Positions 46,872-64,000 are shown, counted from the stretch's first letter. The stretch: DNA of 64,000 bases from Ignavibacteriales bacterium (GCA_037441705.1 JBBIRR010000001.1:160001-224000), one strand, 5' to 3'. The notes: generated by a model not told the origin, from the letters alone. Program-made: numbers and translations.

Positions 46872-46879
46872 CGTTCTCC

Positions 46880-50484: not shown

Positions 50485-50501
50485 GCACATGTGCACATCT
50501 C

Positions 50502-51371
50502 TCACATTTCGACAAGCTGTTTGTACAGGTCGGGCCGGCGATCCCGGAAGAACTGCCACACCTCCCGCACTTCTTTGATCATGTCCAGATCGAGATCGGC
50601 AACAACCAGCTCATCTTTGTCGCGACTGGCTTGCGCGATGATTTTGCCGCGCGGGTTGCAGAAGTAACTCTTGCCATAAAACTCGCCGATGTTCCACGGC
50701 GCTTCGATGCCGACCCGATTGATCGCGCCGACGAAGTACCCGTTGGCAACGGCATGTGCCGGCTGTTCCAACTCCCAGAGATATTCCGAGAGTCCCGCGA
50801 CCGTTGCCGACGGATTGAAAACTATCTCCGCCCCATTTAGTCCGAGGCAGCGCGCCCCTTCCGGAAAATGGCGATCATAACAAATGTACACACCCACTTT
50901 AGCGTAGCGTGTGCTGAACACCGGGTAGCCGAGATTGCCGGGACGAAAATAGAATTTTTCCCAAAATCCCGGATCCACCTGCGGGATGTGCGTCTTGCGA
51001 TACTTACCGAGATACGATCCATCGGCATCGAGCACGGCAGCGGCGTTGTAATACACTCCCGTCATCTCTTCTTCGTAGATCGGTACAACCATCGCCATCT
51101 TATATTTCTTTGCAAACTCCTGCATCAGCTTCACCGTCGGTCCGTCGGGGATCTTTTCCGTCATGTTGTACCATTTGGATTTCTGTTCCGCGCAGAAGTA
51201 GGGTCCGTAGAAAATTTCCTGCAAGCAGAGAATCTGCACGCCTTTCTTCCCCGCCTCCTCGATGAAGGGAATGTGCTTGTCAATCATCGCCTTCTTGATG
51301 ACGTCGAGAGGCCGGTCGTTGGAGGTGGCAATGGAACACTGGATCAAACCGCAGGTGACGGTACGTGGCAT
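50502..51371 (-). CDS. Nitrilase-superfamily amidohydrolase, probable beta-ureidopropionase
   Basis: Catalytic E-K-C triad: LCLQEIF, YRKTHIP, ICYDRHFPEG; FWEKFYF.PG; first gene of the preTA-hydA operon. Confidence 0.88.
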   Translation of the reverse strand: MPRTVTCGLIQCSIATSNDRPLDVIKKAMIDKHIPFIEEAGKKGVQILCLQEIFYGPYFCAEQKSKWYNMTEKIPDGPTVKLMQEFAKKYKMAMVVPIYEEEMTGVYYNAAAVLDADGSYLGKYRKTHIPQVDPGFWEKFYFRPGNLGYPVFSTRYAKVGVYICYDRHFPEGARCLGLNGAEIVFNPSATVAGLSEYLWELEQPAHAVANGYFVGAINRVGIEAPWNIGEFYGKSYFCNPRGKIIAQASRDKDELVVADLDLDMIKEVREVWQFFRDRRPDLYKQLVEM

Positions 51372-51439: not shown

Positions 51440-52777
51440 TTATCGAACAAGAACCAGTTTCTGAACTCGCAGTTCATTCTCCGCTTCGAGCCGATAGAAA
51501 TACACCCCCGACGGAATATCGGACAGATCAAGATGCACGGCATAATAGCCCGCGCTCTGATGTTCCGCAACGAGCGTGCGAACCGGACGACCGAGAAGGT
51601 CGTACACGCGTAACAACACATGTGCAGCGCGCGGAATTCCGTAGCGGATTGTCGTTGACGGATTGAGAGGATTGGGATAGTTCTGAAACAGTACCAGTGT
51701 CGAAGGCACCAGGGGCTGCATCGAAGCCACAGAAGATGGATTGAAATACCGCACGGCACGCCTCCAGAAAATCGCCACCGTGTCCGTACCGGAAACGACG
51801 CGTGCCGAGATCGTGTCGGTTCCCGGAAGCGTCGGGGCGGTGAGCGTCGCGGAGTATGTGCCATTCCCGTTGTCGCTGACGGCCCCGAGGGTTCCGGCTC
51901 CTGTGTTGCGCAGCAGGATCGTTCGTCCCGGCGCAAGCAGCGTGTCGGAATTGTTTTTGGGGATGATCAGAATCGCTGCCGCAGACGTTCCGTTGGCCGG
52001 CAGAGAATCGGGCGTGACAGCAAGTTGTGAGAGGAACGGATCGACACGCGTGCGAAGCGAATCCTTCCATTGATCGAACATCGTGTGCAGGATGGTGATC
52101 GGATCGCTTCCGACGGGGGAATCCGGAACGATCTTCTGCAGGTAGGGAACGGACCCGTCGCCGATGCGCACAACTTTGATGAACGACGAACGAGACGACG
52201 TGCCGCGCGAGGCACACCGCGTATCCGCCCCGATGATTTTCGCCGCTTCGAGTGTTGCCATCAAACGATCGGCAAGCGGTCCCGGCGTGCGCAGGAAGGT
52301 ATTCTTCATCGTGTCAATAATCATTTGGCCGGAGAGAATGTTGCCCTGAACGGCGTACCCTCTCCCCGTTGCGTGATTCTTGTAGTCTATGCAATTCACG
52401 CCGGTGTAGGCGGCGCTTTCGCCGCGTCGACGAAGATCAACCACGCCGTACTGACGGATCGTGGGATTGTTCTGCGCATCGTGCGCAACCATGTAATCAA
52501 TGATCTGCTGGGGGGAATCGCCGGCAAGCATGCGCTGTCGCGCCGTAAGCTGATTGGCTTCAAGGTAGGAGGCCTGCGTGTGGATAGCGCCGATCCCTTC
52601 CAGCACGTCGCTGAGAATAAACGCCCCGACGCCGTTGATGGCACCAACGCACGATGCCCCTGCGCTGCCGATTTCGCCCGTCACGGTGTCCACCGCAACA
52701 ATGGAAAAGGTATCCTGCGCAACGGCAGACCCCAAAAGAACAAACACCAACCCCACGCATGCAAGCTCTTTCTTCAT
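51440..52777 (-). CDS. Secreted DUF1028 (Ntn-hydrolase-like) protein with invasin/Big_1 domain and T9SS CTD
   Basis: Signal peptide then TFSIVAVD..TGEIGSAGASC, TQA, RQYGVVD, QGNIL; LPANG...DNGNGTYSATLT (Big_1); LFQNYPNPLNPSTTIRY. Confidence 0.85.
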   Translation of the reverse strand: MKKELACVGLVFVLLGSAVAQDTFSIVAVDTVTGEIGSAGASCVGAINGVGAFILSDVLEGIGAIHTQASYLEANQLTARQRMLAGDSPQQIIDYMVAHDAQNNPTIRQYGVVDLRRRGESAAYTGVNCIDYKNHATGRGYAVQGNILSGQMIIDTMKNTFLRTPGPLADRLMATLEAAKIIGADTRCASRGTSSRSSFIKVVRIGDGSVPYLQKIVPDSPVGSDPITILHTMFDQWKDSLRTRVDPFLSQLAVTPDSLPANGTSAAAILIIPKNNSDTLLAPGRTILLRNTGAGTLGAVSDNGNGTYSATLTAPTLPGTDTISARVVSGTDTVAIFWRRAVRYFNPSSVASMQPLVPSTLVLFQNYPNPLNPSTTIRYGIPRAAHVLLRVYDLLGRPVRTLVAEHQSAGYYAVHLDLSDIPSGVYFYRLEAENELRVQKLVLVR

Positions 52778-52852
52778 GGTTATCACCGAAGCTGGTGGGT
52801 TGAAGTGGCTACGTACAACGATAGTAGAATTGGGGAAGGAAAGCAAGAATGC

Positions 52853-53312: not shown

Positions 53313-55850
53313 CTAACGTATGAGCAGCATCTTCCTGGTCAAGACAAAACGTCCCGCGCGTAGTTGATAGAAGTACACACCGCTGGCCAACCCAGTGCCG
53401 TCAAACCTCACCGACTTGAACTGGGGGCCTGTGGCGCCATGACGCTTCTCGCCACCTGCATCCTGAACCCCATCCACCAGTGTTGCCACCTCGCGCCCTT
53501 GCACGTCGTACACCTTCAACGACACAAGACCTGAACCGTGAAACTTGAATCGAATGGTTGTCCAGGGGTTGAACGGGTTTGGATAGTTCTGTTCCAGCAC
53601 CATGACTGCCGGCTGCTCAGGTTCCTCTCCCACAGCAGTAAGGGAGCTGAGAAGTCGTCGCTCATACACACCATTGCTGTGCGTCGCTGCACGCAGCACG
53701 CGGTGGGATGGCGAGACGACGAGGTCGGCAACAATCACAGCTTCGGGCAATCCGTCGTTGAAGCTCATCCACGCTGCGCCGCCATTGGTCGAGACGAACA
53801 CGCCGACGTCCGTCCCAACATACACATGATTCGTATTGAACGGATCAATCGCAACCGCGGTGGCAGGCACATTCAGCAGCGTGCCGCTGATGTCACTCCA
53901 GCTCAGGCCGCAATCCACTGACTTTGCGACCCGCATCGTATCGAAGCCACCGATGGCCACGTACACAACACGCGCATCGCGCGGGTCAACGGCGATATCC
54001 ATGTAGTAGCGGTTCGGAAGCGGACCGGTGACATCCTCCCACGTGATTCCGCCGTTCGTCGTCCTGAACAGATGAGGGCGTGCGATGCCCGGCACCGTAC
54101 CCACGAAAACCGTGTCGGGATGTGTCGGCGCAATCGCCATCGAAAGCATCGGATTGCCGTCGAGCGGCACACCGGCGTTGGTTGCAAACCAGCTCGTGCC
54201 CCCGTTCGTCGTCTTAGAAACGACGCTTCTTCCAAAATAGAGGACGTTTGGATGCGACGCCGAAAGAACAAACGGAGTATTCCAGCATGCCGCCCCGCTG
54301 AAATTCCCCGGCAGCGAACTGAACGAGACGCCGCGGTTCGTTGATCGGTAGATGCTGCCGCCTCCGCGGTTTCCCGCATACTGAATCAGATCGTTCTGTT
54401 GATTGATCGCCGTCCACCCAATCTCATCCACGCCGCCCGAGGGCCATGAAAGCGAGCCGACGTATTTGAAGCCGAAATGATCCTGCACGTGGCCCAATGC
54501 CATGAACGAATCCTGCGCCGAGCAGGAGAAGCCGTTGTAGAACTGCGACGTCAGCAGTCCCTGACTCGCGTTCTCATACGTCTCGCCGAAGTCCGTCGAA
54601 CGGTAGACGCCGCCATCACTCACCACATACAGTATGTTGGGGTTGGTAGGATGATGAGCGAAGTTGTGCATGTCGTAGTACGCACCGGATCGCTGCGAAG
54701 AGGTGACGCCGCCGTTGGTTGACTTGAAAATGTACACGCCGCCTCGCACCACCTGATTTGCGTCGGTGGGGTGCACGGCAGCGAATTGCGAGTACCAGCC
54801 CTGGACGCCGTAGAGCGCCTCGCTGCTCAGAAGTGTCCAGCTTGCACCGAAGTCCGTCGTGCGCCAGAGTGTGCCCGTACCCGTGGTGCTATCGGCAAGA
54901 CTTGCGAGTACGTACAGCGGGTTCGACCTTTGTTGCGAAAGCATCCCTTTGCCCGAGAACGCCGGCAGTCCGCCGATCATCGAAAAGGATTCGCCGCCAT
55001 CGGTCGAGCGATAGACGCCGCGACCCGGTGAGCCGAAGTTGCCGCATGTTGCAAGCACCTGTGTTGTATCCCACGCGTTGATGACGATGTCCTGTGCAAG
55101 CAGCGCGCTCAGTGTCTGATACCATGTTGCACCGGCATCCTTCGATTTGAAAATCCCTTCCGAGGTTGCTGCAAACACTGTGTTCGGGTTCAGAGGATTC
55201 AGCCTGATAGCTTGCACCCCGCGCTGTTGATGGTACGACCAGTCGAGGCTCCTCGTCCATGTTGCGCCGCCGTCGGTGGTCTTCAAAACGCCCATGCCGT
55301 AACTTCCGCGCGTCGTACGGATGACGATGCCGCCCGTCGAACCCTGGTAGCGATACACCTCCCCCGTCCCGATGTAGATGGTGTTCGTGTCGGTTGGATG
55401 GATGGCAATGGCGTTCACACCAAGCACCGGGTAACCGGTTTCCACTCGATGCCAGTCCCCGCCGAGCCCGCCGGTAAACGAGCGCCACAACCCGCCGCTT
55501 GCCGAGCCTGCGTAAACCGTCGAGGGATTCAGCGGATTCAACGCCACGGCGAGCATTCTTCCCGCGAAGTTGATCGGGCCGATCGATCGCCACATATCGA
55601 GCGCCGACGAGCGCGCCTCGGTCATTGTCTGCTTCACGTTTTCGAAAGCCCGGTACTGGGCATCGGGCGAGATATCGGCAAACGGGTACGCGCGCGACTG
55701 CGTCCACAACTGCAGCGCCTGCAGTGCATCCGAAGCGCTTTCCCGATCTCTGAGATCAAGCGGCAGAACGAACGTGAGAAAGAAGAGCAGAACCGAAAGA
55801 AGAATGAACTGTTTACGGTAATTGGTCACCATGCGATCAGACTGGCTCAC
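53313..55850 (-). CDS. Secreted BNR/VPS10-type beta-propeller protein with T9SS CTD
   Basis: WRSIGP...GR, YAGSASGGLW, many S/T.DGG.TW Asp-box repeats, YVGTDVGVF, ATHSNGVY; CTD LEQNYPNPFNP.TTIRF. Start may be ATG 55832. Confidence 0.88.
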   Translation of the reverse strand: MSQSDRMVTNYRKQFILLSVLLFFLTFVLPLDLRDRESASDALQALQLWTQSRAYPFADISPDAQYRAFENVKQTMTEARSSALDMWRSIGPINFAGRMLAVALNPLNPSTVYAGSASGGLWRSFTGGLGGDWHRVETGYPVLGVNAIAIHPTDTNTIYIGTGEVYRYQGSTGGIVIRTTRGSYGMGVLKTTDGGATWTRSLDWSYHQQRGVQAIRLNPLNPNTVFAATSEGIFKSKDAGATWYQTLSALLAQDIVINAWDTTQVLATCGNFGSPGRGVYRSTDGGESFSMIGGLPAFSGKGMLSQQRSNPLYVLASLADSTTGTGTLWRTTDFGASWTLLSSEALYGVQGWYSQFAAVHPTDANQVVRGGVYIFKSTNGGVTSSQRSGAYYDMHNFAHHPTNPNILYVVSDGGVYRSTDFGETYENASQGLLTSQFYNGFSCSAQDSFMALGHVQDHFGFKYVGSLSWPSGGVDEIGWTAINQQNDLIQYAGNRGGGSIYRSTNRGVSFSSLPGNFSGAACWNTPFVLSASHPNVLYFGRSVVSKTTNGGTSWFATNAGVPLDGNPMLSMAIAPTHPDTVFVGTVPGIARPHLFRTTNGGITWEDVTGPLPNRYYMDIAVDPRDARVVYVAIGGFDTMRVAKSVDCGLSWSDISGTLLNVPATAVAIDPFNTNHVYVGTDVGVFVSTNGGAAWMSFNDGLPEAVIVADLVVSPSHRVLRAATHSNGVYERRLLSSLTAVGEEPEQPAVMVLEQNYPNPFNPWTTIRFKFHGSGLVSLKVYDVQGREVATLVDGVQDAGGEKRHGATGPQFKSVRFDGTGLASGVYFYQLRAGRFVLTRKMLLIR

Positions 55851-55987: not shown

Positions 55988-56323
55988 TTATGGTGTTTTT
56001 GATTCGAGCGCCGATATCCGCTGCTCATGGTCATCCAGTGTGCTCTTTGTTTTGGAGTAGTCGCGCCGGATTTCTTGAACAAGGTTTGTAAAATGGTACT
56101 GCATCTTCTCGTCCAACCGGGCGACAGTTGCGTCCGTGTAGGCCTTGAGCGTCTCCACGACGACCCCCAGCTTGGCATTGAGCTTTTCTTCAAGCTTTTC
56201 TTCAAGCTTTCGTTCGAGCTTTTGCTCGATCTTTTTCTCAAGGCGTGCACCAAAAGCAGCAAGCTCCTTCTGGAGAATAGCCTTTGTTACGATTTGACCG
56301 TTGATGGGTTTTTGTTTTGCCAT
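55988..56323 (-). CDS. Small coiled-coil hypothetical protein with (L/I)ExK repeats
   Basis: LEKKIEQKLERKLEEKLEEKLNAKL encoded by 12-bp repeats; ends LDDHEQRISALE. Confidence 0.65.
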   Translation of the reverse strand: MAKQKPINGQIVTKAILQKELAAFGARLEKKIEQKLERKLEEKLEEKLNAKLGVVVETLKAYTDATVARLDEKMQYHFTNLVQEIRRDYSKTKSTLDDHEQRISALESKTP

Positions 56324-56424: not shown

Positions 56425-57669
56425 TCACACATTCCTGTGGCAGCTGTAGCACGCCGGACTCGCATAGATGTATCCCTGTCGGTTCCGATGCTTATCGTCC
56501 ATGCGGGTTTGTTCGTGCTCATGGCAACTGAGGCAGGTGAAGACTTGATATTGTGTCGGGGTAGGATGGCATTGGGTGCAGGACGTCCACTTGTTGCGGT
56601 GTTTTCCCGAATAGATTCTGAACGAGCGCGCATCGTGATCGAACGTCGAAGGTTGCCACGCCGTTGTGGTATGACACGGCGTGCAGTCGTGGCTGAATTG
56701 TGAGGCGACGTGATTCGGATTCGCCGCCTGCTCGAATTGCTGCGCGTGACACTGGTAGCAGTCCTGGTACGTCAGAGCGTAGTTGTTGTTGATGTGACAC
56801 GATGCGCACACGGTGGTCGCGTGCCTGCCGGTAAGAGGGAAGCCCGTGCTGGCGTGGTCGAACGTTGCCGGTCGCCAGGTAGACTGCGTGTGGCAGGAGC
56901 GGCACTCGGTGGAGAACCCGTTTGCGGCGTGTGCAGGATTCGTTGCGTTCGCGTACTCCGAGCGATGACAGCCAACGCACGCTGCATCCAATCCGCGGAA
57001 ACGATTGCCGGCGTGACACTGTGAGCAGGCAGTTGCGGCGTGTGCACCCACAAGCGGAAAGGCTGTGCGCGCATGATCGAACCCCGTGCCCCAGCTTCGC
57101 GCGGCCGGCTGATGGCACTGCAGGCAATCGGTAGAAAACTGCGCCGCCGCATGATTGGGCGATGCCGTCTGCGCGTACTCCCTGCGGTGGCACGCCACAC
57201 ACTCGATCGGTGTGCCGGCATACAACTGCTGGGCAGCATTGGTATGACATGCTTCGCATGTGAGCGAGGCATGCCTGCCAAGCAGGGCAAACCGCGTCGC
57301 CTGATGTTTCTGCAGCATGTCGGTGACTTTCCACGATGTTGTGGTGTGGCACCGCACGCAGAGCATACCGAGTTCTGCCTTGTGCACATCCGTGTGGCAG
57401 GCGGTGCACGCGGAAGAGGTTTTGACAAACTTCAACCCGGCGTGGCAGCTCGCACACTTCACAGCCTCATGTGCGCCGGTGAGTGCAAAGCCCGTTGATG
57501 CGTGGCGAAACGTCGCGTCCCTTTTCATCTTCCACGAGTCCGTGCTATGACACGATGCGCAGGCTAAGCGTATCGGGCCGTGCGGAGATTCCTGAGAAAC
57601 AAGAAAGGATGGAAGCTGGGTGAGAAAAACCGTCATCATCGTCCGGCGCAAAATCTTCCCTGTCGTCAT
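56425..57669 (-). CDS. Multiheme c-type cytochrome, 16 CxxCH motifs
   Basis: AGGAGG RBS, signal peptide, 16 CxxCH counted, F.H..T.F.L.G.H repeats; paralogue of 60662-63232. Confidence 0.93.
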   Translation of the reverse strand: MTTGKILRRTMMTVFLTQLPSFLVSQESPHGPIRLACASCHSTDSWKMKRDATFRHASTGFALTGAHEAVKCASCHAGLKFVKTSSACTACHTDVHKAELGMLCVRCHTTTSWKVTDMLQKHQATRFALLGRHASLTCEACHTNAAQQLYAGTPIECVACHRREYAQTASPNHAAAQFSTDCLQCHQPAARSWGTGFDHARTAFPLVGAHAATACSQCHAGNRFRGLDAACVGCHRSEYANATNPAHAANGFSTECRSCHTQSTWRPATFDHASTGFPLTGRHATTVCASCHINNNYALTYQDCYQCHAQQFEQAANPNHVASQFSHDCTPCHTTTAWQPSTFDHDARSFRIYSGKHRNKWTSCTQCHPTPTQYQVFTCLSCHEHEQTRMDDKHRNRQGYIYASPACYSCHRNV

Positions 57670-57689
57670 CGTTGTTCCTCCTTTCCTGG

Positions 57690-59009
57690 TTAGGCTGCCG
57701 CTGCCTGTGCTTCGACCTCCACCGGTCGCATCTTGATGCCGCATCGTTTCAGCAGTTCGGTCGGCATCTCTCCTCCAGCAAACACAAAGACGAAGTCGTT
57801 GCGCAAGTTGTGCATAATGTTCCCGCGCTCCTGCACAATCACGGCGTCGGACTTGATCTCCACAACCTGCGAGGAGAAGATGACGTTGAGCTTGCCGGAT
57901 TCAATGAACTGCTGCACCTTCTGTTCGTTCTTCTCCTTCAACCGCACGAATTCTTCCTTGCGATAACTTATCGTCACGGTATTTCCGACCTGACTTGCAA
58001 GGCCGATAGCAGCTTCCACCGCGCTATCACCGCCGCCCACGACGAGGATGTGTTTGTGCTTGTAGGTTTCGGCTTCGATCAATCTATACATCACCTTCGT
58101 GAGCTGCTCGCCCGGCACGCCCAGTTTGCGCGGGCTGCCGCGCCGACCCAACGCAAGCATAACGTTGGCGGCTCGGAATTCCGCACCTTGCGTCTTCACG
58201 ATGAAGTGATCGTTCAACGCGTGGATCGCCTCCACCTTCTGGCCGGTCAGGATGTTCAGCCGGAACCGCCCGACAATGTCCTGCCAGATGGCAAGCAATT
58301 CTTCTTTCGAGATTTCAGAAACTTTCAGCTTGCCGTAGAGCGGCAGCTCGACGGGGCTGGTGAGGACGAGCTTTTGTCGCGGATAGTGGAGAATCGCGCC
58401 GCCGATTTCGTCCTGCTCGAGCACGACATAGCGCATGTTTTTTGCTTGTGCTGCAAGCGCGGCGGCAAGTCCGGCAGGCCCCGCACCGACAATCACGACA
58501 TCGAAATCGGCCACGTGTTTCGAGCGACGCGACGAGGCAATGTGCTCGAGACCTTTGATTCCCTGATGCACCGCGTTCTTGATCAAGCCGATCCCGCCCA
58601 ATTCACCCACAATATAGAGTCCGGCGACGTTCGTTTGAAAGTTATCGTCGTAGAACGGAATTTCCATCCCCTGGCGCGGCGTACCGAATGCAAGGGTCAC
58701 GGCCCCGACGGGACACACATCGGCACACAGACCGTGACCGACGCACTTTGTGCCGTTGATGATGGCCGGTCGCCCCTGAACAATTCCGAGCACATGCTCG
58801 GGACAGGCGCGCACGCAGCTCGCGCAGCCGATGCAATCCGTCAGATCGAAATGCGGATGCAGCGTCACAGGAGCCGTAATGCCCATTCGCCGACTCTTCT
58901 CATATTTTTCCGCGGCCTCACGATGATGGCGGGCAACGCGACGCCAGTACGGAACGGCAACCAGGCTCACAAGAATCAGGAAAATGACCGACGTGTAGAT
59001 GGTCTCCAT
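57690..59009 (-). CDS. Membrane-anchored 2x[4Fe-4S] / thioredoxin-reductase-like FAD-NAD(P) oxidoreductase
   Basis: N-terminal TM helix; CIGCASCVRACP; CVGHGLCADVCP; DVVIVGAGPAGL; ILVVGGGDSAVEAA; SYRK. Confidence 0.88.
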   Translation of the reverse strand: METIYTSVIFLILVSLVAVPYWRRVARHHREAAEKYEKSRRMGITAPVTLHPHFDLTDCIGCASCVRACPEHVLGIVQGRPAIINGTKCVGHGLCADVCPVGAVTLAFGTPRQGMEIPFYDDNFQTNVAGLYIVGELGGIGLIKNAVHQGIKGLEHIASSRRSKHVADFDVVIVGAGPAGLAAALAAQAKNMRYVVLEQDEIGGAILHYPRQKLVLTSPVELPLYGKLKVSEISKEELLAIWQDIVGRFRLNILTGQKVEAIHALNDHFIVKTQGAEFRAANVMLALGRRGSPRKLGVPGEQLTKVMYRLIEAETYKHKHILVVGGGDSAVEAAIGLASQVGNTVTISYRKEEFVRLKEKNEQKVQQFIESGKLNVIFSSQVVEIKSDAVIVQERGNIMHNLRNDFVFVFAGGEMPTELLKRCGIKMRPVEVEAQAAAA

Positions 59010-59066
59010 CTCGTTATCTCTCCTGCTCGATGTGCATGCTTGTGAGTGAAATGAAAATCAACGCCC

Positions 59067-60665
59067 TCAAAACCTCACGCTCAGTTCAGCGAAAACGGAG
59101 TTCGATATCGTGCCGTAGCCGTCCAGCCTATCGAACGTCGTCATCAAGGTAAGGGACTGAGTGATGAAGACGAGAAGGTCGGCGCCGAGGGTTGTACTGT
59201 GGTCGCGCTGGTTTGTCTGACGCACGGTGTAACCGCTACGTTGGATGCGCGCGGTGACATCGAACAGCGCGCCGAACGCCCGCTGCACGGCAACACCGTA
59301 GCCCGATGCGTGCGTGTAGCGGTTCGCATGCAGGTTCACCGTCGAACGCACGGCAATGCCTGAGGAAAGAATGTCGTTGAATGAAAGGGATGAGATGTTG
59401 GAGTATTCCCTGCCGAAGGCTGCCTCCGGTGCGTTGCGCGGCCGGTAGGTGTTTGTCAGAGCGATGCCCGCGGGAAGGAACCAATTGAACGTCAGGCTCA
59501 ATCCGGATCGCAGATCATCAATGAGCAGCGAATCGGGGATGTCGCGGACCGCGCGGAAGCTGTAATACGGACGCGCAGCGTCGGCACCGACTCCTACGCT
59601 GAGCGACCCTGCGATGCGATACGTGAGATGGATATAGGCAGCGGTCAAACGCGGCGAGAGAATGAACTCGCTCCCCGCCTTCTTCCGCAAATCTGTCTCG
59701 ACATTCCCATACACAAAGAGGCTGCTGCCAATCGAAGCGTTGAGCAGCAGGCTCGCCACTTCGCGGTCGAGAGCGGAACGATAGTACGTCCTCGCATACG
59801 CCGCACCAACGGAGAGTTGCGACGGCGCGGGCACCGACACTTGCGCGAACAGGGCGACCTTCTTGTACTCGGTGGAGATACTCCGGAGCGTGAAGTCCGG
59901 CTGATACCCAAGCGTCGTTCCGACAAGCAGGGGACCGAGCTTTGCCGAAGCCATCAGCCCGTCCACATAACCGATGGACGGCGCATAGATGGGGATGATC
60001 CTTCCAACGGAGAGAATCCGATCACCGTCGTCGTATGTTACCGAAAGTCCGTAGATGCGGGATTGGTTAACCGCGCGCTTCGAAAACGGACTCCGATTGC
60101 CGATGGTGAGCGAGCGAAGGTTGGCAAGGATTTCGACCTGCAGCGGCACATCACGCAGCCCGCCGCGCAAGTTCAGCACAACACCCGGTTGCGTAATGTT
60201 GAAGGCAGAGTTCTCATAAAGCGACGTGAAGTACTGTGCACTCACGCGTCCCTGCAGCGTGAACGGCGAGCGTTCTGCGATGGATGACGATCGAACCGGC
60301 TGAGGATTCGGCAGCGGCTCGCCGGACGTTCGCTCCAGTTGGGGTGCGGCGGGGTCGGCTTTCTTCTGCTCGAGCAGGATGACTCTCGCCCACACCTCAT
60401 CGCCGACCACAATCTGACGCAGCGCGCTCACGACCCTGCATACCGACGACTTGGAACTCACAGCGTACACCTTCAGCACCGCAGTGGTATCCCGTCCGGC
60501 AACGACGTACAGCAGCGTCGAGTCCTGCACGCCGCTTCCGCGACCCAGCGAGGTGTACACACTCCCGCCCGCAAGGTAGGTAACGGTTCCACGAACAATC
60601 TTCTCTTCCGCCTGCAGCATGCACGCCGCAAGCATTCCTATCACCACCACGGTCTTCTTCATCAC
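59067..60665 (-). CDS. Putative outer-membrane beta-barrel (porin-like) protein with N-terminal small beta domain
   Basis: Signal peptide; Pro-rich linker; alternating amphipathic strands; C-terminal ...VFAELSVRF (terminal Phe typical of beta-barrels); lies between cytochrome genes. Confidence 0.7.
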   Translation of the reverse strand: MMKKTVVVIGMLAACMLQAEEKIVRGTVTYLAGGSVYTSLGRGSGVQDSTLLYVVAGRDTTAVLKVYAVSSKSSVCRVVSALRQIVVGDEVWARVILLEQKKADPAAPQLERTSGEPLPNPQPVRSSSIAERSPFTLQGRVSAQYFTSLYENSAFNITQPGVVLNLRGGLRDVPLQVEILANLRSLTIGNRSPFSKRAVNQSRIYGLSVTYDDGDRILSVGRIIPIYAPSIGYVDGLMASAKLGPLLVGTTLGYQPDFTLRSISTEYKKVALFAQVSVPAPSQLSVGAAYARTYYRSALDREVASLLLNASIGSSLFVYGNVETDLRKKAGSEFILSPRLTAAYIHLTYRIAGSLSVGVGADAARPYYSFRAVRDIPDSLLIDDLRSGLSLTFNWFLPAGIALTNTYRPRNAPEAAFGREYSNISSLSFNDILSSGIAVRSTVNLHANRYTHASGYGVAVQRAFGALFDVTARIQRSGYTVRQTNQRDHSTTLGADLLVFITQSLTLMTTFDRLDGYGTISNSVFAELSVRF

Positions 60666-63232
60666 ACATTCCTATGGCAACTGTAACATGCTTGACTGTT
60701 GTACTGATAGTTCGGAACGTTCTGATGCTCGCGATCCATCTCGCTCTGGCGATGTTCGTGACAACTGATGCAGGTAAAGATCTGGTACTGCCCGAGGGTC
60801 GGGTGACATTGTGAGCAGGAGGTCCACTTCCCGCGGTGTTTGCCCGAATAAATCCTGAAATACTGCAGGTCGTGGTTGAATGTTGACGGCCTCCAGGCAG
60901 TCGTCGTGTGGCACGGTGTGCAATCGTGGCTGAACTGGAGCGTCACGTGATTGGGGTTCTGCGGCTGTGCATACTGCGCAGCATGGCATTGATAACAATC
61001 CTGATACGTCAAGTTGTAGTTGTTGTTGACATGACAGGAGACGCACGGCGTCGTTACGTGCCGTCCCGTGAGCGGGAATGCAGAGTTGTTATGATCGAAC
61101 GATGCCGGACTCCACGCCGCCGTTGTGTGACACTCTGTGCAGTTCTGACTGAAGTTGCGAGCCACGTGGTTTGGGTTGGTCGTGTTGTTGAAGTCGGTGA
61201 GATGACAACCCACACACGCCGTCGGCAAACCCTGGTACTGGTTGTTCACATGGCACTGGTTGCACGACGTTGCCAGATGCGCCCCGGTCAACGGAAACGC
61301 CGTGTTCGCATGATTGAACGTGGACGGCAGCCACGCCGTCGTCGTATGGCACGGCGCGCAGTCGTGATTGAAGTTGCCCAGCACGTGGTTCGGATTCGTC
61401 GGCAATGCATACTGCGCCGTGTGACAGGGATAGCAGTTCGTGTACTGCAGCTGATAATTCCCGCTCACGTGGCAATCCTGACACTGAATCGTTGCGTGCC
61501 GCCCCGTCAGCGGGAAGTTTGTGCTTGCATGATTGAACGACGCCGGATGCCACGCCGATTGAGTGTGGCACGTCAAACAATCGTGACTGAACTGTCCCTG
61601 CTGATGGTTGGGATTGGTCGTATTGTTGAAGGCCGTCGCATGGCAATCCCAGCACGTGTGCGGAAGATTCTGATACTGATTGTTGCGATGACATTGGTTG
61701 CACGTCACCGTCTGATGCGCGCCAACTAACGGAAACGCCGTGGTCGCATGATTGAACGTGGACGGCAACCATGCCGTCGTCGTGTGGCACGGCGCGCAGT
61801 CATGATTGAAGTTGCCCAGCACGTGGTTCGGATTCGTCGGCAATGCATACTGCGCCGTGTGACAGGGATAGCAGTCCGTGTACTGCAGCTGATAATTCCC
61901 GTTCACGTGGCAATCCTGACACTGAATCGTTGCGTGCCGCCCCGTCAGCGGGAAGTTTGTGCTTGCATGATTGAACGACGCCGGATGCCACGCCGAGGTT
62001 GTGTGACACTCCGTGCAATTCATACTGAAGCCTGCCGTCTGGTGGTTCGGATTCGTCGCGTTGTTGAAGTTCGACCTGTGGCAATCCACACAATTAGAGG
62101 GGATGGTGGTGTACTGCCCGTTCCGATGACATTGCTCGCAGCTGATGGCAAGATGTGCCCCGGTCAGCGGGAACGCCGTTGTGCTGTGATTGAAAGTCGA
62201 GGGCCGCCATGCAGTCTGCGAATGGCACGTTGCACATTCGGTCGGAAAGTTGCCCGCGGTGTGGTTGGGGCTCGTGGTGCCGTTGTACGCCGGGCGATGA
62301 CAGGCCACGCACTCCGTCGGCCTGCCGGCAAATTGATTATCCGCGTGACAGGCGCGGCATTGTTGGACGTGATGCGCGCCTACAAGAGGAAAGAGAGTTT
62401 GGTTGTGATCGAACCGCGCACCCTCCCACGTTGCAGTCGTATGGCAGCTTTGACATTCGGAGGAGAACCGCGCCGCCGCGTGGTTCGGATTGGTTGTTGA
62501 AGCAAACGCCGCTTGATGGCACGCAGCACATTGCTGAGGCGTGGAGCTAAACGCCGGTGTTGTGTGACAATCCGCGCAGGCGGTGGTTCGGTGCGCGCCC
62601 GTGAGGGGAAACGCCGTCCCTTCGTGCGTAAACCCTGTGCCCCACCGAAACGCCGTCACCTGATGGCATTGCTCGCAGTTAGGAGAAAAGCGAGCGAACG
62701 CGTGATTGGGATTCGTCGTGCGAGCGTAATCGGAACGGTGACAGCCGGCGCAGACGGTCGGCGTCCCCGCAAACAGCTTCTGCGCCGCGTTGGTGTGGCA
62801 CATCTGGCATGCGAGCGTTGCGTGCTTGCCCAACAGCGGAAAGCGCGTCAGTTGATGCTTCTGCACCATGTCCCCCACCCGCCAATTATCCGTCGAGTGA
62901 CAGCGTGTACAGCCTGTGCCCAACTCGCCGCGATGGACATCCGTGTGGCAGGAGAAGCAATCCGATGAGGCCTTTGCAAATTTCAATCCTGCGTGACAGG
63001 ACGAACATTGCAGCGAAGTGTGTTGCCCTTGCAACACGAAGCCGGTTGCGGCATGATCGAAGCTTGCATCTTTTCTCAGCTTCCACGTCTCAGTGTTGTG
63101 ACAGCTCGCGCAGGCATACCGAATCGGCCCGTGCGGCGATTCCTGAGCGTACACGTTCTCACCCACACATATCGCCAGCGTCAACAGACCGGCAACGAAC
63201 AGGGCTTGTCCTGTGTGTGCTCTGTTAACCAT
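60662..63232 (-). CDS. Large multiheme c-type cytochrome, 34 CxxCH motifs
   Basis: Signal peptide (VYA-QESPHG); 34 CxxCH counted; tandem 73-aa tri-heme modules. Confidence 0.94.
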   Translation of the reverse strand: MVNRAHTGQALFVAGLLTLAICVGENVYAQESPHGPIRYACASCHNTETWKLRKDASFDHAATGFVLQGQHTSLQCSSCHAGLKFAKASSDCFSCHTDVHRGELGTGCTRCHSTDNWRVGDMVQKHQLTRFPLLGKHATLACQMCHTNAAQKLFAGTPTVCAGCHRSDYARTTNPNHAFARFSPNCEQCHQVTAFRWGTGFTHEGTAFPLTGAHRTTACADCHTTPAFSSTPQQCAACHQAAFASTTNPNHAAARFSSECQSCHTTATWEGARFDHNQTLFPLVGAHHVQQCRACHADNQFAGRPTECVACHRPAYNGTTSPNHTAGNFPTECATCHSQTAWRPSTFNHSTTAFPLTGAHLAISCEQCHRNGQYTTIPSNCVDCHRSNFNNATNPNHQTAGFSMNCTECHTTSAWHPASFNHASTNFPLTGRHATIQCQDCHVNGNYQLQYTDCYPCHTAQYALPTNPNHVLGNFNHDCAPCHTTTAWLPSTFNHATTAFPLVGAHQTVTCNQCHRNNQYQNLPHTCWDCHATAFNNTTNPNHQQGQFSHDCLTCHTQSAWHPASFNHASTNFPLTGRHATIQCQDCHVSGNYQLQYTNCYPCHTAQYALPTNPNHVLGNFNHDCAPCHTTTAWLPSTFNHANTAFPLTGAHLATSCNQCHVNNQYQGLPTACVGCHLTDFNNTTNPNHVARNFSQNCTECHTTAAWSPASFDHNNSAFPLTGRHVTTPCVSCHVNNNYNLTYQDCYQCHAAQYAQPQNPNHVTLQFSHDCTPCHTTTAWRPSTFNHDLQYFRIYSGKHRGKWTSCSQCHPTLGQYQIFTCISCHEHRQSEMDREHQNVPNYQYNSQACYSCHRNV
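61306..61996. repeat. Intragenic direct repeat, 253 bp, offset 438 bp
   Basis: 61306-61558 versus 61744-61996; six substitutions counted by eye. Confidence 0.9.
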
Positions 63233-64000
63233 TGCGGATGCTTCCTGGTGTATGACATGATTCGCACGTTGATGGCATCGGCTTGAAGCGAACGAACGCC
63301 GTCGCCCCCCGGCGTTCTTCGCGATGGCACCGGCGGCACGGCACTCGCACATGAGCGCCCGTCAACGCAAACGTGCTGTGGGTATTGTGATCGAAAATCA
63401 GATTCTTCCATCCCTGTGGCTGGTGACAGCGGGCGCAATCGCTGGAGCCGTTGACGGCAAACTGACCCGCATGCGCATCCTCGTGGCACGCCGCGCACCG
63501 CCTGTCGGTTCCTTTGTACTGCGGCACCTCGAATCCTCCAACCTTCTTCGCGCGATGACAGGCGCCGCATCTGACGCTCGCATGTTTACCCACGAGGGGA
63601 AAGTTCGTCTTTGCATGATCGAAACTCTCGGGCCGCCAGTCGGTCGTGGAATGACATGCGTCGCAGCTTCTGCCTTTCATCTCCTGAGCAAACTGCCCTC
63701 CGTGGCGATCGCGATGGCACGCCTCGCAGCGCAGGTCGGCAAAGTGAAAGCCGCGCCGCCCGTCGTCGCCGCGCACGTGACAATCCTCGCAGAGCACCGC
63801 CGCATGCGCTCCCGTCAGCGGAAAACGCGCAGCACGATGAGCAGCCACGGTAAACGTCGCAGGAACGAACCCGAACGGCGTGTGGCACGATTCACACCGA
63901 TTGCCGAAGCGGGCGGCAAAATCTCCACGATGATAGTCCACGTGGCAATCAGTACACGCATTGTGTGCCAACTTCAGGGCCGAACCTGCGCGGGAGGTTC
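63225..64000 (-). CDS. Multiheme c-type cytochrome (partial; at least 10 CxxCH; continues past the window edge)
   Basis: Frame open to the edge (...TSRAGSALKLAHNACTDCH); 10 CxxCH visible; same F.H...F.L.G.H module type; overlaps the next start. Confidence 0.9.
   Translation of the reverse strand, partial: TSRAGSALKLAHNACTDCHVDYHRGDFAARFGNRCESCHTPFGFVPATFTVAAHRAARFPLTGAHAAVLCEDCHVRGDDGRRGFHFADLRCEACHRDRHGGQFAQEMKGRSCDACHSTTDWRPESFDHAKTNFPLVGKHASVRCGACHRAKKVGGFEVPQYKGTDRRCAACHEDAHAGQFAVNGSSDCARCHQPQGWKNLIFDHNTHSTFALTGAHVRVPCRRCHREERRGATAFVRFKPMPSTCESCHTPGSIRNG

Follow-up and report, generated by a model that had tools for sequence, protein, structure and literature searches.

A PCC3-like porin-cytochrome cluster with a conserved Fe-S flavoprotein from an Ignavibacteria-like genome: a candidate NAD(P)H-fed electron conduit

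One end of a 64-kb window (the term denotes the whole stretch of DNA analysed here) carries three multiheme cytochrome (MHC) genes, a gene for a putative beta-barrel protein and a gene for a membrane-anchored Fe-S flavoprotein, which raises the question of whether these genes encode an electron conduit across the cell envelope and, if so, what donor would feed it. The closest described system is PCC3, a putative porin-cytochrome c cluster reported in 2017 from Alpha-, Beta- and Gammaproteobacteria (PMC5566968) and still called 'functionally unverified' in 2025 (PMC12442390). As far as the descriptions in PMC5566968, PMC10734462 and PMC12442390 go, PCC3-type clusters are widespread and contain some of the largest MHCs known, with no demonstration to date of their function, direction or inner-membrane electron source. 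On our reading, which we hold with about equal measures of belief and doubt, the window contains most of a PCC3-type trans-envelope electron conduit that would be fed with NAD(P)H via the flavoprotein, in an Ignavibacteria-like member of the Bacteroidota.

Gene layout, cytochromes and candidate barrel

Positions 56425-64000 of the window were resolved by ORF calling into five co-oriented genes on the minus strand, with the following features (basis of each call in brackets):

63225..64000 (ORF 63225-63998), minus strand: cytA, the first multiheme cytochrome, C-terminal 257 aa (ORF, 10 CxxCH motifs, Pfam)
60662..63352, minus strand: cytB, 34-heme cytochrome (longest ORF 896 aa, motifs, Pfam)
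61051..62229, no strand: tandem repeat inside cytB (438 bp unit)
59067..60665, minus strand: 532-aa secreted protein, candidate outer-membrane porin (sequence features)
57690..59009, minus strand: Fe-S flavoprotein, 439 aa (ORF, domains, motifs)
56425..57744, minus strand: cytC, 16-heme cytochrome, 439-aa ORF (ORF, motifs, similarity to cytB)

Reading from 5' to 3', the five ORFs contain 10 (partial), 34, 0, 0 and 16 CxxCH motifs. The three cytochrome frames hold 60 of the 63 such motifs found in the six-frame translation of the whole window, far more than chance would yield. The cytB stop and the start of the barrel gene overlap by 4 nt, and the remaining gaps between genes amount to 2, 57 and 20 nt if, as in our reading, the likely starts ahead of the signal peptides are taken. 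The locus is as described in the initial annotation, which had proposed a porin-multiheme cytochrome operon, the porin being predicted from sequence features. The flavoprotein gene casts a shadow ORF on the plus strand (57672-59045). A recent horizontal arrival of the cluster was considered and rejected, as its G+C content (0.55-0.60) is the same as that of the flanks.

The cytA gene is open at its 5' end and runs past the window edge. The encoded part matches the Pfam families Cytochrom_c3_2 (6.2e-13) and Cytochrome_C7 (5.1e-11) and is 46-61% identical to the C-terminal part of 19-23-heme proteins in eight related loci, where the full-length proteins are 503-621 aa long and start with an SPI-type signal peptide ending ...A/Q (the slash marks the end of the signal peptide). 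Such endings, recorded for all of the cytochrome signal peptides, indicate Sec/SPI export. We regard cytA as a candidate periplasmic wire, the counterpart of the 'periplasmic MHC' of PCC3, with the periplasmic location predicted from the SPI signal peptide.

For cytB, the likely start is Met41 at 63232, with a signal peptide ending VYA/QESPHG and a mature protein of ~827 aa built from 73-aa tri-heme units; Cytochrome_C7 matches it over 7 stretches (E 1.4e-35), and its 81 His are enough for bis-His ligation of 34 hemes. The hemes are spaced in a repeating 32/16/25 tri-heme unit with no decaheme pattern, in accordance with the tri-heme repeat noted initially, and the ratio of 24.3 aa per heme is alike in cytB and cytC. 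Across loci, cytB orthologues have 16-42 hemes. The tandem repeat inside cytB (a unit of 438 bp, equal to 146 aa and 6 hemes, in 2.2-2.3 copies of 81-82% identity) records the mode by which the heme number expands. We regard cytB as a candidate outer or extracellular wire, corresponding to the 'extracellular MHC' of PCC3, although a surface-export route for the large cytochromes was not evident: the signal is a plain SPI one, with neither a conserved lipobox nor a T9SS C-terminal domain. The likely start of cytC is Met26 at 57669, with a signal peptide ending LVS/QESPHG. With 49-52% identity to the N- and C-terminal parts of cytB, cytC is, judged by its sequence, a shortened cytB paralogue that has the same terminal modules and fewer internal tri-heme units. 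Among the loci compared, it was found only in the window and in the closest relative, L001. No PDB sequence matched cytC at E up to 0.01, and the cytA homologue of another locus (L002) matched only NrfH (E 1.2e-4) and one cytochrome c.

The 532-aa protein begins with a signal peptide and a ~100-aa N-terminal domain with a conserved AVSSKSS motif, followed by a variable linker and, up to the terminal ...FAELSVRF, by ~400 aa that show beta-barrel features. F532, R531 and E527 are conserved in at least 90% of the 45 barrel-family members, 18 strand-like segments were counted, and the period-2 amphipathicity is strong (z = +4.6 versus ~0 in three controls). The protein itself matched no Pfam family (E up to 0.01) and no NCBIfam family; in the family, Pfam OMP_b-brl gave a sub-threshold match in 5 of the 45 members, and MtrB_PioB matched none of them at E up to 5. 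Family searches yielded sets of 90 and 1793 relatives, among which no name other than 'hypothetical' was seen, and ten distant representatives were all 'hypothetical' or unnamed. The barrel profile had no PDB match at E up to 10, and mean-field DCA of the family (207 sequences, Meff 178) gave no usable signal, with 5 anti-diagonal stripes above 2.0 versus 11 in the parallel-diagonal control. An Atlas look-up, for which the barrel homologue P0014 served as query in place of the window's own barrel, gave named neighbours with a score of 0.86, to be taken as leads only. A lipoprotein barrel was rejected, since the LAAC that the signal peptide has in the window is not kept in relatives. Accordingly, the initial assignment of 59067-60665 to a beta-barrel stands in part, at the level of sequence features, and the protein is a candidate outer-membrane sheath (porin) of the conduit with a predicted barrel fold.

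Related loci and the inner-membrane protein

A scan of genomes for related loci was run with a 13-sequence alignment, and ten MAG loci were compared. The MAGs are labelled Ignavibacteria, Ignavibacteriae, Chlorobi or Bacteroidota, which fits the Ignavibacteria-like host proposed at the outset. The order inner-membrane protein (IMP), 19-23-heme cytochrome, 16-42-heme cytochrome, barrel and flavoprotein was found in all eight loci with enough upstream DNA, and the two truncated loci agree with it; the conservation of gene order, on which the initial annotation had made its proposal depend, is therefore observed wherever a locus is long enough to judge. In all ten loci the barrel gene lies between the large-cytochrome gene and the flavoprotein gene, the latter being 3' of the barrel gene, and in these Ignavibacteria-type loci the IMP and flavoprotein genes stand at opposite ends of the operon. 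Glutathione-peroxidase genes are present 3' of the flavoprotein gene in L008 and L010. No ccs gene adjoins the cluster in any of the ten MAG loci.

Plasmid searches for the cluster found only Emticicia oligotrophica, whose plasmid pEMTOL02 carries, in order, ccsBA, IMP, flavoprotein, 23-heme cytochrome, 40-heme cytochrome and barrel homologue. The same five parts are present in a different order, the IMP gene directly adjoining the flavoprotein gene, and the two follow immediately after the fused CcsBA cytochrome-c biogenesis gene. The Emticicia flavoprotein is 44.5% identical to that of the window, and hhalign gave probabilities of 98.9% for the barrel homologue and 100% for the IMP. A whole module, together with its own cytochrome-c maturation gene, is thus plasmid-borne in a cultured aerobe.

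The gene that heads the operon in the relatives, just beyond the window, encodes a membrane protein of ~286 aa (281-290 aa; 286 aa in the member P0107) with five predicted hydrophobic helices. P0107 comes from a contig equal in length, at 372,069 bp, to that which bears the window's own barrel and flavoprotein. The initial annotation had pointed to the DNA beyond the window edge as the place to look for a membrane cytochrome b, and in all eight loci of the relatives with enough upstream DNA the first gene does encode a five-helix protein carrying two HX13H pairs. In all 37 aligned members W88, H92, H106, S128, G129, G132, W255, H259 and H273 are invariant, which amounts to WX3HX13H on TM3, SGxxG on TM4 and WX3HX13H on TM5, that is, the IMP signature of PCC3 and PCC4 as given in PMC5566968, where the PCC3 IMP is described as a protein of ~300 aa with five helices and likened to the ferric-reductase/NOX domain. 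With 6 and 20 K+R in the K/R-rich loops 2 and 4, the two His pairs come to lie close to opposite faces of the membrane. From these features, the IMP is most likely a carrier of two b hemes, arranged one above the other across the membrane. In Pfam, only sub-threshold matches were obtained, to DUF4405 in 20 of the 37 members (best E 0.002) and to Ni_hydr_CYTB in 10 (best E 0.0019), with no Ferric_reduct match in any of the 37 at E up to 5. The IMP profile had three chance-level PDB matches (E 1.9-4.9), and hhalign showed no similarity to E. coli MsrQ (0.09%) or YodB (0.18%).

The flavoprotein and the source of electrons

The flavoprotein combines a two-motif ferredoxin domain (Fer4 families, residues 51-105) with a Pyr_redox_3 domain (E 4.8e-48, residues 172-428). 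It has a GxGxxG site for FAD, and VVGGGDSA forms a second site for a dinucleotide. One N-terminal hydrophobic helix (residues ~1-22, predicted N-out/C-in) serves as membrane anchor, and the 8 K/R that follow it place the bulk of the protein in the cytoplasm. The initial description of an anchored 2[4Fe-4S] flavoprotein is upheld as to the anchor and the two Fe-S motifs, CxxCxxCxxxCP and CxxHxxCxxxCP, and is refined in that the second has His in place of the usual second Cys, a replacement invariant in 34/34 aligned relatives. Among proteins of solved structure, it is closest to YpdA/Bdr and to thioredoxin-reductase-type ferredoxin-NADP reductases, all of 326-328 aa, which are without the extra membrane anchor and ferredoxin domain. 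Assignment to YpdA/Bdr, a putative thiol-disulfide reductase and the best family model, was rejected (TIGR04018 176.9 bits versus a cut-off of 339.9), as was thioredoxin reductase (TIGR01292 95.5 bits versus 343.45); the flavin domain contains no CxxC, 7 of the 8 Cys in the protein lying in the two Fe-S motifs. The flavoprotein is a candidate entry point on the NAD(P)H side.

The contacts between the proteins, the direction of flow and the NAD(P)H donor that we infer for the five conserved parts (an IMP with two probable b hemes, a ~20-heme, putatively periplasmic cytochrome, a long cytochrome of variable heme number, a predicted barrel and a membrane-anchored, cytoplasm-facing flavoprotein) would be as follows. 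Electrons would pass from NAD(P)H to FAD, to the two Fe-S clusters and to the cytoplasm-side heme b of the IMP, from there to the periplasm-side heme b and the 20-heme wire, and then through the large wire and the barrel, which would sheathe part of the heme chain in the outer membrane, to an external acceptor, e.g., Fe(III)/Mn(IV) minerals, humics, electrodes or partner cells. Reducing equivalents would leave by this conduit in a NOX-like manner, possibly independently of quinones. The conserved flavoprotein suggests such a NOX-like NAD(P)H input, and the NAD(P)H link proposed initially is made more plausible by the retention of the flavoprotein in 10/10 loci and in Emticicia. More specifically, we tentatively propose, as a possibility rather than a probability, that the PCC3-type IMP is a NOX-like transmembrane di-heme carrier, not a quinol oxidase, and is reduced directly by the NAD(P)H-oxidising Fe-S flavoprotein. 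If so, electrons from NAD(P)H would leave the cells of these Bacteroidota along a quinone-independent wire made up of FAD, two Fe-S clusters, two b hemes and >50 c hemes, which would act as a vent for reducing equivalents, with the membrane potential supplying part of the drive. Counting against such a conduit, electrons moving outwards across a di-heme carrier would draw on the membrane potential instead of conserving energy.

The main alternative, which we consider somewhat unlikely, is that we are dealing with an ordinary PCC3 that draws on the quinone pool, with the IMP as a quinol-oxidising (or quinone-reducing) di-heme cytochrome b and the flavoprotein as an accessory, e.g., an NAD(P)H:quinone reductase charging a local quinone pool or a redox-maintenance enzyme. 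The sub-threshold similarities of the IMP, to Ni_hydr_CYTB and DUF4405 and not to Ferric_reduct, point this way. Ni_hydr_CYTB relatives are quinone-reactive, which favours the quinone pool, and the separation of the flavoprotein gene from the IMP gene in the ten Ignavibacteria-type loci speaks for it as well. In addition, PMC5566968 models the PCC3 IMP as a quinone-active cytochrome b, and proteobacterial PCC3 is a set of four genes with no flavoprotein in the descriptions given by PMC5566968, PMC10734462 and PMC12442390. However, an accessory role does not readily account for a flavoprotein that is kept in the cluster in every locus, or for its gene directly following the IMP gene in Emticicia despite the rearranged cluster, and its ferredoxin domain and anchor would suit hand-over to a membrane redox partner.

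It is also conceivable, if improbable, that the conduit runs inwards, with electrons taken up from Fe(II), minerals, cathodes or partner cells and the flavoprotein making NAD(P)H or reduced ferredoxin. General bioenergetics argues otherwise, as inward transfer through a transmembrane di-heme carrier would oppose the membrane potential and the reduction of NAD(P)+ by bis-His c-type hemes would be uphill; moreover, the relatives are, from record labels and what we take to be their physiology, heterotrophic MAG lineages and an aerobic oligotroph (Emticicia), not known iron oxidisers. The case for uptake comes from the occurrence of PCC3 in iron oxidisers, where PMC12442390 and PMC10734462, in the passages concerned, discuss it as a candidate iron oxidase, and from Sideroxydans sp. 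CL21, in which the same sources describe the IMP gene of one PCC3 copy as significantly upregulated when iron oxidation is possible.

Very improbably, in our view, the IMP and flavoprotein serve the maturation or upkeep of the cytochromes, supplying periplasmic reductant for heme iron or CxxCH thiols during assembly of proteins with 20-40 hemes. The position of the Emticicia pair directly after ccsBA, the closeness of the flavin domain to the thiol-reductase-like YpdA and TrxR and the glutathione-peroxidase genes of two loci are consistent with such a role, which is opposed by the lack of an adjoining ccs gene in the ten MAG loci, by the lack of a redox-active CxxC in the flavoprotein and by the IMP motif being common to proteobacterial PCC3 and PCC4, where the IMP is, as PMC5566968 describes them, the sole inner-membrane redox candidate. 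Least credible is a system without outer-membrane crossing, in which the heme proteins would stay periplasmic as a capacitor or soluble-substrate reductase and the 532-aa protein would be unrelated, whether outer-membrane or periplasmic: the cytochromes show no surface-export signal, the barrel is assigned from sequence features and its family covariation is uninformative, but the 532-aa gene keeps its place between the large-cytochrome and flavoprotein genes in 10/10 loci and is retained in the rearranged Emticicia cluster, and its product has a signal peptide, ends on a conserved Phe and is strongly amphipathic with period 2.

Returning to the NAD(P)H-fed conduit, its conserved candidate partner for the IMP makes the feed of PCC3 testable, as NAD(P)H through the flavoprotein versus quinol, and since Emticicia oligotrophica DSM 17448 is cultured and has the whole set on one plasmid, genetic and biochemical work is feasible. 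The window and its relatives extend the PCC3 type to the Bacteroidota/Ignavibacteria group, and look-alikes in the Atlas, again leads only, indicate that the cluster may reach Acidobacteriota, Gemmatimonadota and Planctomycetota. Should the NAD(P)H route prove real, heterotrophs living in sediments, aquifers and wastewater granules would have a new means of discarding electrons, with minerals or partner cells as recipients.

Comparison with known electron-transfer systems

With MtrCAB of Shewanella (and MtoAB and PioAB) the locus would share the general principle of a cytochrome chain sheathed by an outer-membrane barrel, and the Mtrc-MtrF_II-IV_dom pentaheme domain scored above the cut-off of 30 in cytB (48.8 bits), cytC (41.6) and the L002 cytA homologue (53.2). 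However, the heme numbers here are 2-4 times larger, and family membership was rejected for MtrA/DmsE decahemes (TIGR03508 22.2, 27.5 and 46.7 bits versus a cut-off of 192.2), for MtrB (no MtrB_PioB match for the barrel) and for OmcA/MtrC (~23 bits versus 209), in agreement with the initial remark that these proteins show no MtrA/MtrB-like decaheme spacing. The Hmc and Tmc complexes of sulfate reducers couple redox chemistry of the cytoplasm to the periplasm by means of a multiheme cytochrome on the periplasmic side, a cytochrome b in the membrane and an Fe-S protein on the cytoplasmic side; they are not known to include an outer-membrane barrel, and in place of a flavoprotein they use an HdrD-like cytoplasmic subunit. 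The likeness to Hmc is weak, with 26-39 bits for the 16-heme HmcA model, far below the cut-off of 400.

The flavin module of NADPH oxidases is FNR-type, unlike the flavoprotein here, which is of the two-dinucleotide-binding TrxR/YpdA type with a ferredoxin domain, and the acceptor here would be a c-heme chain rather than O2 or Fe chelates. What the cluster has in common with NADPH oxidase, ferric reductase and MsrQ is the two HX13H pairs on helices 3 and 5 of the IMP, a parallel drawn for PCC3 in the relevant part of PMC5566968, as well as a cytoplasmic NAD(P)H-type flavoprotein encoded alongside, with an electron path that would cross the membrane from inside to outside. Membership of the IMP in these families was rejected, the resemblance being one of pattern only, given the lack of a Ferric_reduct match and the hhalign result for MsrQ.

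Among porin-cytochrome clusters, Geobacter Pcc (OmbB-OmaB-OmcB) likewise has a porin gene adjoining multiheme cytochrome genes, but its 8-heme periplasmic and 12-heme outer cytochromes, as given in PMC4245776, do not fit the heme numbers here; the same source describes in Ignavibacterium album a Pcc cluster (IALB_1837-1840) whose periplasmic cytochrome has 14 hemes in 400 aa. 'OmbB-like PCCs' with largest cytochromes of 40 and 33 hemes were reported in two Ignavibacteria MAGs, with porins named by that study's own HMMs (PMC7399161), and are possibly the same cluster type as here. The main text of that study contains 'inner membrane', 'FAD', 'flavoprotein' and 'thioredoxin' 0 times each and does not mention an IMP or flavoprotein; it also shows a Burkholderiales cluster with the order of two large MHCs and then the porin, as here. 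PCC4, as described in PMC5566968, has an IMP with the same five helices, SGxxG and double WX3HX13H, as well as extra redox genes, but its periplasmic cytochromes are three small ones, with 4, 5 and 10 hemes, and a large or extracellular MHC is absent.

The likeness is closest to PCC3, with which the cluster was compared by description. Its porin, periplasmic MHC, larger MHC and IMP all have candidate counterparts here, and the three PCC3 motifs are invariant in the IMPs of the relatives. The periplasmic MHC of PCC3 has a median of 21 hemes, and 21, 24 or 27 in Gallionellaceae, in the accounts of PMC5566968 and PMC10734462; its counterpart has 19-23 hemes in 8/8 loci and 23 in Emticicia. The larger MHC of PCC3 is predicted to be extracellular and is built of repeats with a variable heme number (median 34, range 10-85) and a low aa:heme ratio according to the same accounts; the large cytochrome here has 34 hemes in the window, 16-42 in relatives and 40 in Emticicia, and in the window it contains the tandem repeat and has a low ratio of 24.3 aa per heme. 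The candidate porin gene adjoins the MHC genes in 10/10 loci, the barrel being predicted from sequence features and the Atlas lead. Consequently, the initial claim of a distinct system does not hold as stated: the parts list and IMP motifs match the predicted PCC3, at least as PMC5566968 describes it, and OmbB-like PCCs with 33- and 40-heme cytochromes were already known from Ignavibacteria. In the literature searched, which did not extend to subscription journals, we found no report joining PCC3 with Ignavibacteria, Bacteroidota or Emticicia, or a flavoprotein with a porin-cytochrome cluster. The cluster differs from PCC3 in its Bacteroidota/Ignavibacteria-like host, in the extra 16-heme paralogue of the window and L001, in the small size of its barrel (~530 aa, compared with PCC3 porins predicted in the descriptions to have up to 42 strands) and in the conserved Fe-S flavoprotein gene, which is a new element relative to PCC3 as described.

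Gene content and surroundings of the cytochrome cluster

The five co-oriented genes with at least 60 CxxCH motifs that the initial annotation had placed at 56425-64000 were recovered as five minus-strand ORFs, in which 60 motifs were counted. By six-frame translation, 60 of the 63 CxxCH motifs of the entire 64-kb window fall in the frames of the three multiheme cytochromes, cytA, cytB and cytC.

Genes of the cluster in the window
63225-63998, minus strand: cytA, 5'-open cytochrome fragment, 257 aa, 10 CxxCH
60662-63352, minus strand: cytB, cytochrome, 896 aa, 34 CxxCH
59067-60665, minus strand: barrel candidate, 532 aa, without Cys-rich motifs, 0 CxxCH
57690-59009, minus strand: Fe-S flavoprotein, 439 aa, 0 CxxCH
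56425-57744, minus strand: cytC, cytochrome, 439 aa, 16 CxxCH

The tri-heme repeat proposed for these cytochromes is indeed present: a 32/16/25 spacing, forming a 73-residue tri-heme unit, is repeated in cytB and cytC, and the Pfam family Cytochrome_C7 matched seven stretches of cytB (E 1.4e-35) and four of cytC. As cytB contains 81 His but only 6 Met residues for its 34 hemes, bis-His ligation would be possible throughout. A 438-bp tandem unit (146 aa, six hemes) occurs in cytB in 2.2-2.3 copies with 81-82% identity, and cytC is a shorter paralogue, its N-terminal and C-terminal parts being 49% and 52% identical, respectively, to the matching ends of cytB. With the Met ahead of the signal peptide presumed to be the start (Met41 in cytB, Met26 in cytC), the intergenic distances are 2, -4, 57 and 20 nt, and the mature cytochromes have 24.3 residues per heme. 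The G + C content of the cluster region (0.55-0.60) is the same as that of its flanks.

Signal peptides were compared at 63150-63232, 57580-57669 and 60600-60665 in the window and in the ten related loci L001-L010; those of all the cytochromes end in Ala followed by Gln (AQFSPG, AQESPHG and others). An N-terminal Gln after the signal peptide is a known pattern of secreted Bacteroidetes proteins, and these ends fit the taxonomic placement. No route for exporting the large cytochromes to the cell surface was visible in the sequences.

The genes on the 3' side, encoding type IX secretion (T9SS) proteins and pyrimidine degradation, are unrelated, indicating that the operon ends at cytC; its 5' end lies outside the window. 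A homologue of the BNR/T9SS protein also adjoins the cluster in L001, L004 and L005.

Other features of the window
55988-56323, minus strand: small ORF of ~111 aa just after cytC, coiled-coil, Lys/Glu/Leu-rich, without a Pfam family; 12-bp tandem repeat at 56180-56242 (3.6-4.7 copies), a promoter-like site of its own (56392-56364) and a hairpin after it
51440-52846 and 53313-55850, minus strand: two secreted proteins with T9SS C-terminal sorting domains, one with DUF1028 and Invasin_D3, the other with BNR/Sortilin domains
40097-51371: reductive pyrimidine-degradation cluster (permease, amidohydrolase, DHO_dh + Fer4, Fer4_20 + Pyr_redox_2, class-III aminotransferase, CN hydrolase)
48483-48953 and 40097-40636: two '23S rRNA-intervening sequence protein' genes inside the pyrimidine cluster
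23608-33305: block of genes for PAS histidine kinases and for response regulators, some of HDOD and HD-GYP-like type
1202-23543: polysaccharide-synthesis region with many glycosyltransferases and two GH8 enzymes (a BNR-repeat fusion and an fn3 fusion)

Conservation of the operon and its inner-membrane protein

A single genome scan, queried with 13 closely related barrel sequences, yielded the ten loci L001-L010; the metagenome-assembled genomes (MAGs) that they come from bear the labels Ignavibacteria, Ignavibacteriae, Ignavibacteriales, Chlorobi (CHB1), Chlorobiaceae, Bacteroidota and 'Chitinophagales'. The CHB1 cluster occupies L002 5098-12926. Gene order, on whose conservation the initial annotation had staked the conduit, is the same in all eight loci with enough upstream DNA (L002-L008 and L010, read on the plus strand): a membrane protein (257-290 aa), a 19-23-heme cytochrome, a 16-42-heme cytochrome, the barrel candidate and the flavoprotein. 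The initial annotation had advised a search to the right of the window for a membrane cytochrome gene, and the membrane protein that heads the operon in these eight loci, with two WX3HX13H motifs, is a candidate for it (hereafter IMP). In L003, the barrel was recognised from one tblastn match over its full length; the contigs of L001 and L009 are short and begin inside the cluster, and their gene order agrees over the part present. Among the ten loci, only L001, the closest relative, has a 16-heme gene 3' of the flavoprotein gene. In L002 and L005 the IMP gene is preceded by a divergent gene for polyphosphate kinase, and in L007 by an acetate kinase gene, indicating that the operon begins at IMP. 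In the protein searches, the window's own barrel and flavoprotein were recovered as P0001 and P0211, both 100% identical. The IMP relative P0107 (286 aa) is on a contig of 372,069 bp, equal in length to the one that carries P0001 and P0211, and is therefore very probably the IMP encoded immediately outside the window.

IMP belongs to no Pfam or NCBIfam family, no relative was found in the PDB, and, among the 120 listed of its 691 relatives, all are nameless or 'hypothetical'. Ten residues are invariant in 37 aligned sequences (W88, H92, H106, S128, G129, G132, W255, H256, H259 and H273). Five helices are predicted, of which helices 3 and 5 each carry WX3HX13H and helix 4 carries SGxxG. Lys/Arg-rich loops follow helices 2 and 4 (6 of 18 and 20 of 130 residues) and should thus be cytoplasmic; H92 and H256/H259 would then lie close to the inner face, with H106 and H273 close to the outer one, the geometry expected of two hemes stacked through the membrane. 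Sub-threshold Pfam matches were obtained to DUF4405 (20 of the 37 members) and Ni_hydr_CYTB (10 of 37), none of the 37 matched Ferric_reduct, and comparison with E. coli MsrQ and YodB by hhalign revealed no similarity.

Short elements were also observed upstream of IMP. The perfect palindrome TGTGC-N6-GCACA, which resembles a CRP/FNR-type site, occurs once each in L007 (5329-5344), L008 (5415-5430) and L010 (5703-5718), 81-144 bp 5' of the IMP start, and at no other place in 12 loci; it hints at redox or oxygen control. Fur-box-like AT-rich repeats were noted by eye upstream of IMP in L007. Four closer loci share the element TCAGTYCTTGTTS (L002 4962-4974, L003 4503-4515, L004 1787-1799 and L005 3712-3724) 113-136 bp 5' of the IMP start; since the pattern was drawn from these four loci themselves, its uniqueness within the 12 loci is alone informative.

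Among 72,556 plasmids examined by protein search, IMP, barrel and full-length flavoprotein occurred jointly in one record only, pEMTOL02 (NC_018749.1, L011), a 100-kb plasmid of Emticicia oligotrophica DSM 17448, a cultured aerobic member of Cytophagia, with the set at 2198-13996.

Gene set of pEMTOL02, in gene order
Gene 1: ccsA, fused cytochrome-c biogenesis protein (CcsBA), 1028 aa; CcsB model 174.9 bits
Gene 2: IMP ('hypothetical protein'), 281 aa; both WX3HX13H motifs and SGxxG
Gene 3: flavoprotein ('NAD(P)-binding protein'); 44.5% identity over 429 residues, same anchor, CxxHxxCxxxCP
Gene 4: 23-heme cytochrome
Gene 5: 40-heme cytochrome; 41% identical to cytB, with 34/15/25 spacing rated the same as that of cytB
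Gene 6: hypothetical protein of 538 aa, barrel homologue

Profile comparison placed the 538-aa protein in the barrel family with a probability of 98.9% (E 2.4e-17, 516 columns) and the 281-aa protein in the IMP family with a probability of 100%. The flavoprotein gene lies directly 3' of the IMP gene here, and comparison with the MAG loci thus indicates that the five parts stay together across Bacteroidota classes while their order changes. The plasmid set resembles a self-contained and possibly mobile module for electron conduction.

The association of the parts is supported, more weakly, in two further ways. Rank correlations between the pairwise identities of the three proteins barrel, flavoprotein and IMP are 0.92-0.95 (nine genomes, 36 non-independent pairs, leaving out L007 with its split flavoprotein gene and L001 and L009 without the IMP region), which shows joint inheritance and nothing further. 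Moreover, when contigs are matched by hand on their length, of 43 barrel-bearing contigs of at least 10 kb, at least 19 recur among the 120 listed flavoprotein matches and at least nine among the 120 listed IMP matches.

The barrel candidate and the flavoprotein

The 532-aa protein is probably an outer-membrane beta-barrel, as indicated by several features of its sequence. It has a signal peptide and ends in ...FAELSVRF, a pattern like that of BAM beta-signals, with F532, R531 and E527 kept in at least 90% of 45 sequences. Its barrel region is about 400 residues long; over residues 131-532, the period-2 amphipathicity is 0.899, compared with 0.655 +/- 0.053 in 500 column shuffles (z = +4.6), and 18 strand-like segments exceed the 90th percentile of the shuffles. 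The controls were flat (z = 0.07 for the N-terminal domain of the same protein, 0.21 for the IMP alignment and 0.15 for the flavoprotein alignment). OMP_b-brl matched 5 of the 45 members below threshold (best E 0.024). For a 56%-identical homologue modelled in the ESM Atlas (pLDDT 0.75), the named clusters nearest by features are outer-membrane barrel families (0.86, a lead only), and our covariation analysis of the family was too noisy for a usable signal. No Pfam or NCBIfam family was matched at E up to 0.01, and no PDB entry at E up to 10 with the profile of the 45 relatives. The family is large, with 90 matches in the word-indexed search and, in the exhaustive search, 1793 cluster representatives (E up to 0.001), of which 425 had an E of 1e-30 or lower; all relatives whose names were checked are 'hypothetical protein' or nameless.

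The flavoprotein matches Pyr_redox_3 (Pfam, E 4.8e-48, residues 172-428) and, over residues 51-105, 4Fe-4S ferredoxin families. Its top NCBIfam model, YpdA, scored 176.9 bits, far below the cut-off of 339.9; among solved chains, the closest are a 'thioredoxin reductase' (7a76_A, E 5e-25) and YpdA/Bdr (7a7b_A), followed by thioredoxin-reductase-type ferredoxin-NADP reductases. Seven of its eight Cys residues lie in CxxCxxCxxxCP and CxxHxxCxxxCP and one close to the C-terminus, so that the flavin domain has no redox-active disulfide. The His of CxxHxxCxxxCP (window 58713-58835, residues 59-99) is present in every one of 34 aligned relatives, and this motif was found in all ten loci. In the Emticicia flavoprotein (L011 6150-7472), the first Fe-S motif reads CxxSxxCxxxCP, the second Cys being missing; these His- and Ser-bearing motifs suggest His-ligated or 3Fe clusters. 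The sole strongly hydrophobic 19-residue stretch is at the N-terminus, with no twin-arginine motif ahead of it and 8 Lys or Arg among the 23 residues after it; by the positive-inside rule, both the Fe-S domain and the flavin domain would be cytoplasmic.

A plus-strand ORF of 457 aa (57672-59045) was rejected as a shadow ORF over the entire flavoprotein gene, the strong family matches being in the minus-strand frame. In L007 (11512-12901), the flavoprotein gene is broken into two ORFs (332 and 114 aa) by either a frameshift or faulty assembly. L008 and L010, the most distant of the MAG loci, have a glutathione-peroxidase gene (12212-12790 and 12949-13305, respectively) directly 3' of the flavoprotein gene, a possible link to oxidative stress.

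Proposed electron path and comparison with known clusters

A conduit of the PCC3 type, one of the predicted porin-cytochrome c cluster types, is the probable role of this operon, and we hold it with fair assurance. The genes, their motifs and families and their conserved association are observed, and the electron path built on them is an inference. NAD(P)H would be oxidised by the flavoprotein at the inner membrane face, and the electrons would travel by way of the two Fe-S clusters to the heme b on the cytoplasmic side of IMP, from which they would move to the periplasm-side heme, the ~20-heme cytochrome and the large cytochrome, with the barrel sheathing the outer-membrane crossing. The constant heme number of the ~20-heme cytochrome suggests a fixed span, the periplasm, and the variable length of the large cytochrome suggests an unconstrained wire reaching outward. 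Outward flow would run downhill in redox terms, from NAD(P)H to bis-His c hemes, and would also be favoured by the membrane potential; reverse flow would have to fight both. Its cost would be that the membrane potential is dissipated rather than built, and the system would dispose of reducing equivalents, not conserve energy. The NOX-like NAD(P)H input through flavoprotein and IMP is advanced tentatively, its chances falling somewhat short of even. The main alternative is that the PCC3 conduit is fed by quinol through IMP, with the flavoprotein as an accessory; quinol feeding through IMP is what PMC5566968 proposes in its treatment of these clusters.

The sections of PMC5566968 on PCC3 and PCC4 give the conserved IMP of both types the signature WX3HX13H / SGxxG / WX3HX13H and liken it to the di-heme ferric-reductase/NOX domain. 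There, PCC3 consists of a porin, a periplasmic multiheme cytochrome (median 21 hemes), an 'extracellular' one (median 34 hemes, up to 85, repeat-built, with a low aa:heme ratio) and an IMP of ~300 aa, in Alpha-, Beta- and Gammaproteobacteria. Gallionellaceae PCC3 cytochromes with 21/24/27 and 10-35 hemes are described in PMC10734462, and a passage of PMC12442390 calls PCC3 'functionally unverified'. In Ignavibacteria MAGs, PMC7399161 describes porin-cytochrome clusters termed 'OmbB-like', with proteins of 33 and 40 hemes, its main text making no mention of an inner-membrane protein, FAD, flavoprotein or PCC3. The Pcc cluster of Ignavibacterium album, described in PMC4245776 with a 14-heme periplasmic cytochrome, looks like a different cluster from that of the window. 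In the open-access literature and preprints, PCC3 was not found linked with Bacteroidota, Ignavibacteria or Emticicia, nor any flavoprotein with a porin-cytochrome cluster.

Compared by published description and IMP motifs, the cluster of the window and its relatives is close to the PCC3 parts list. The 'distinct' electron-transfer system of the initial annotation is best filed as PCC3-like, a predicted kind; what stands of its distinctness, relative to proteobacterial PCC3, is the host phylum, the conserved flavoprotein and the smaller barrel, with about 400 barrel residues in the window protein against the very large porins predicted for PCC3.
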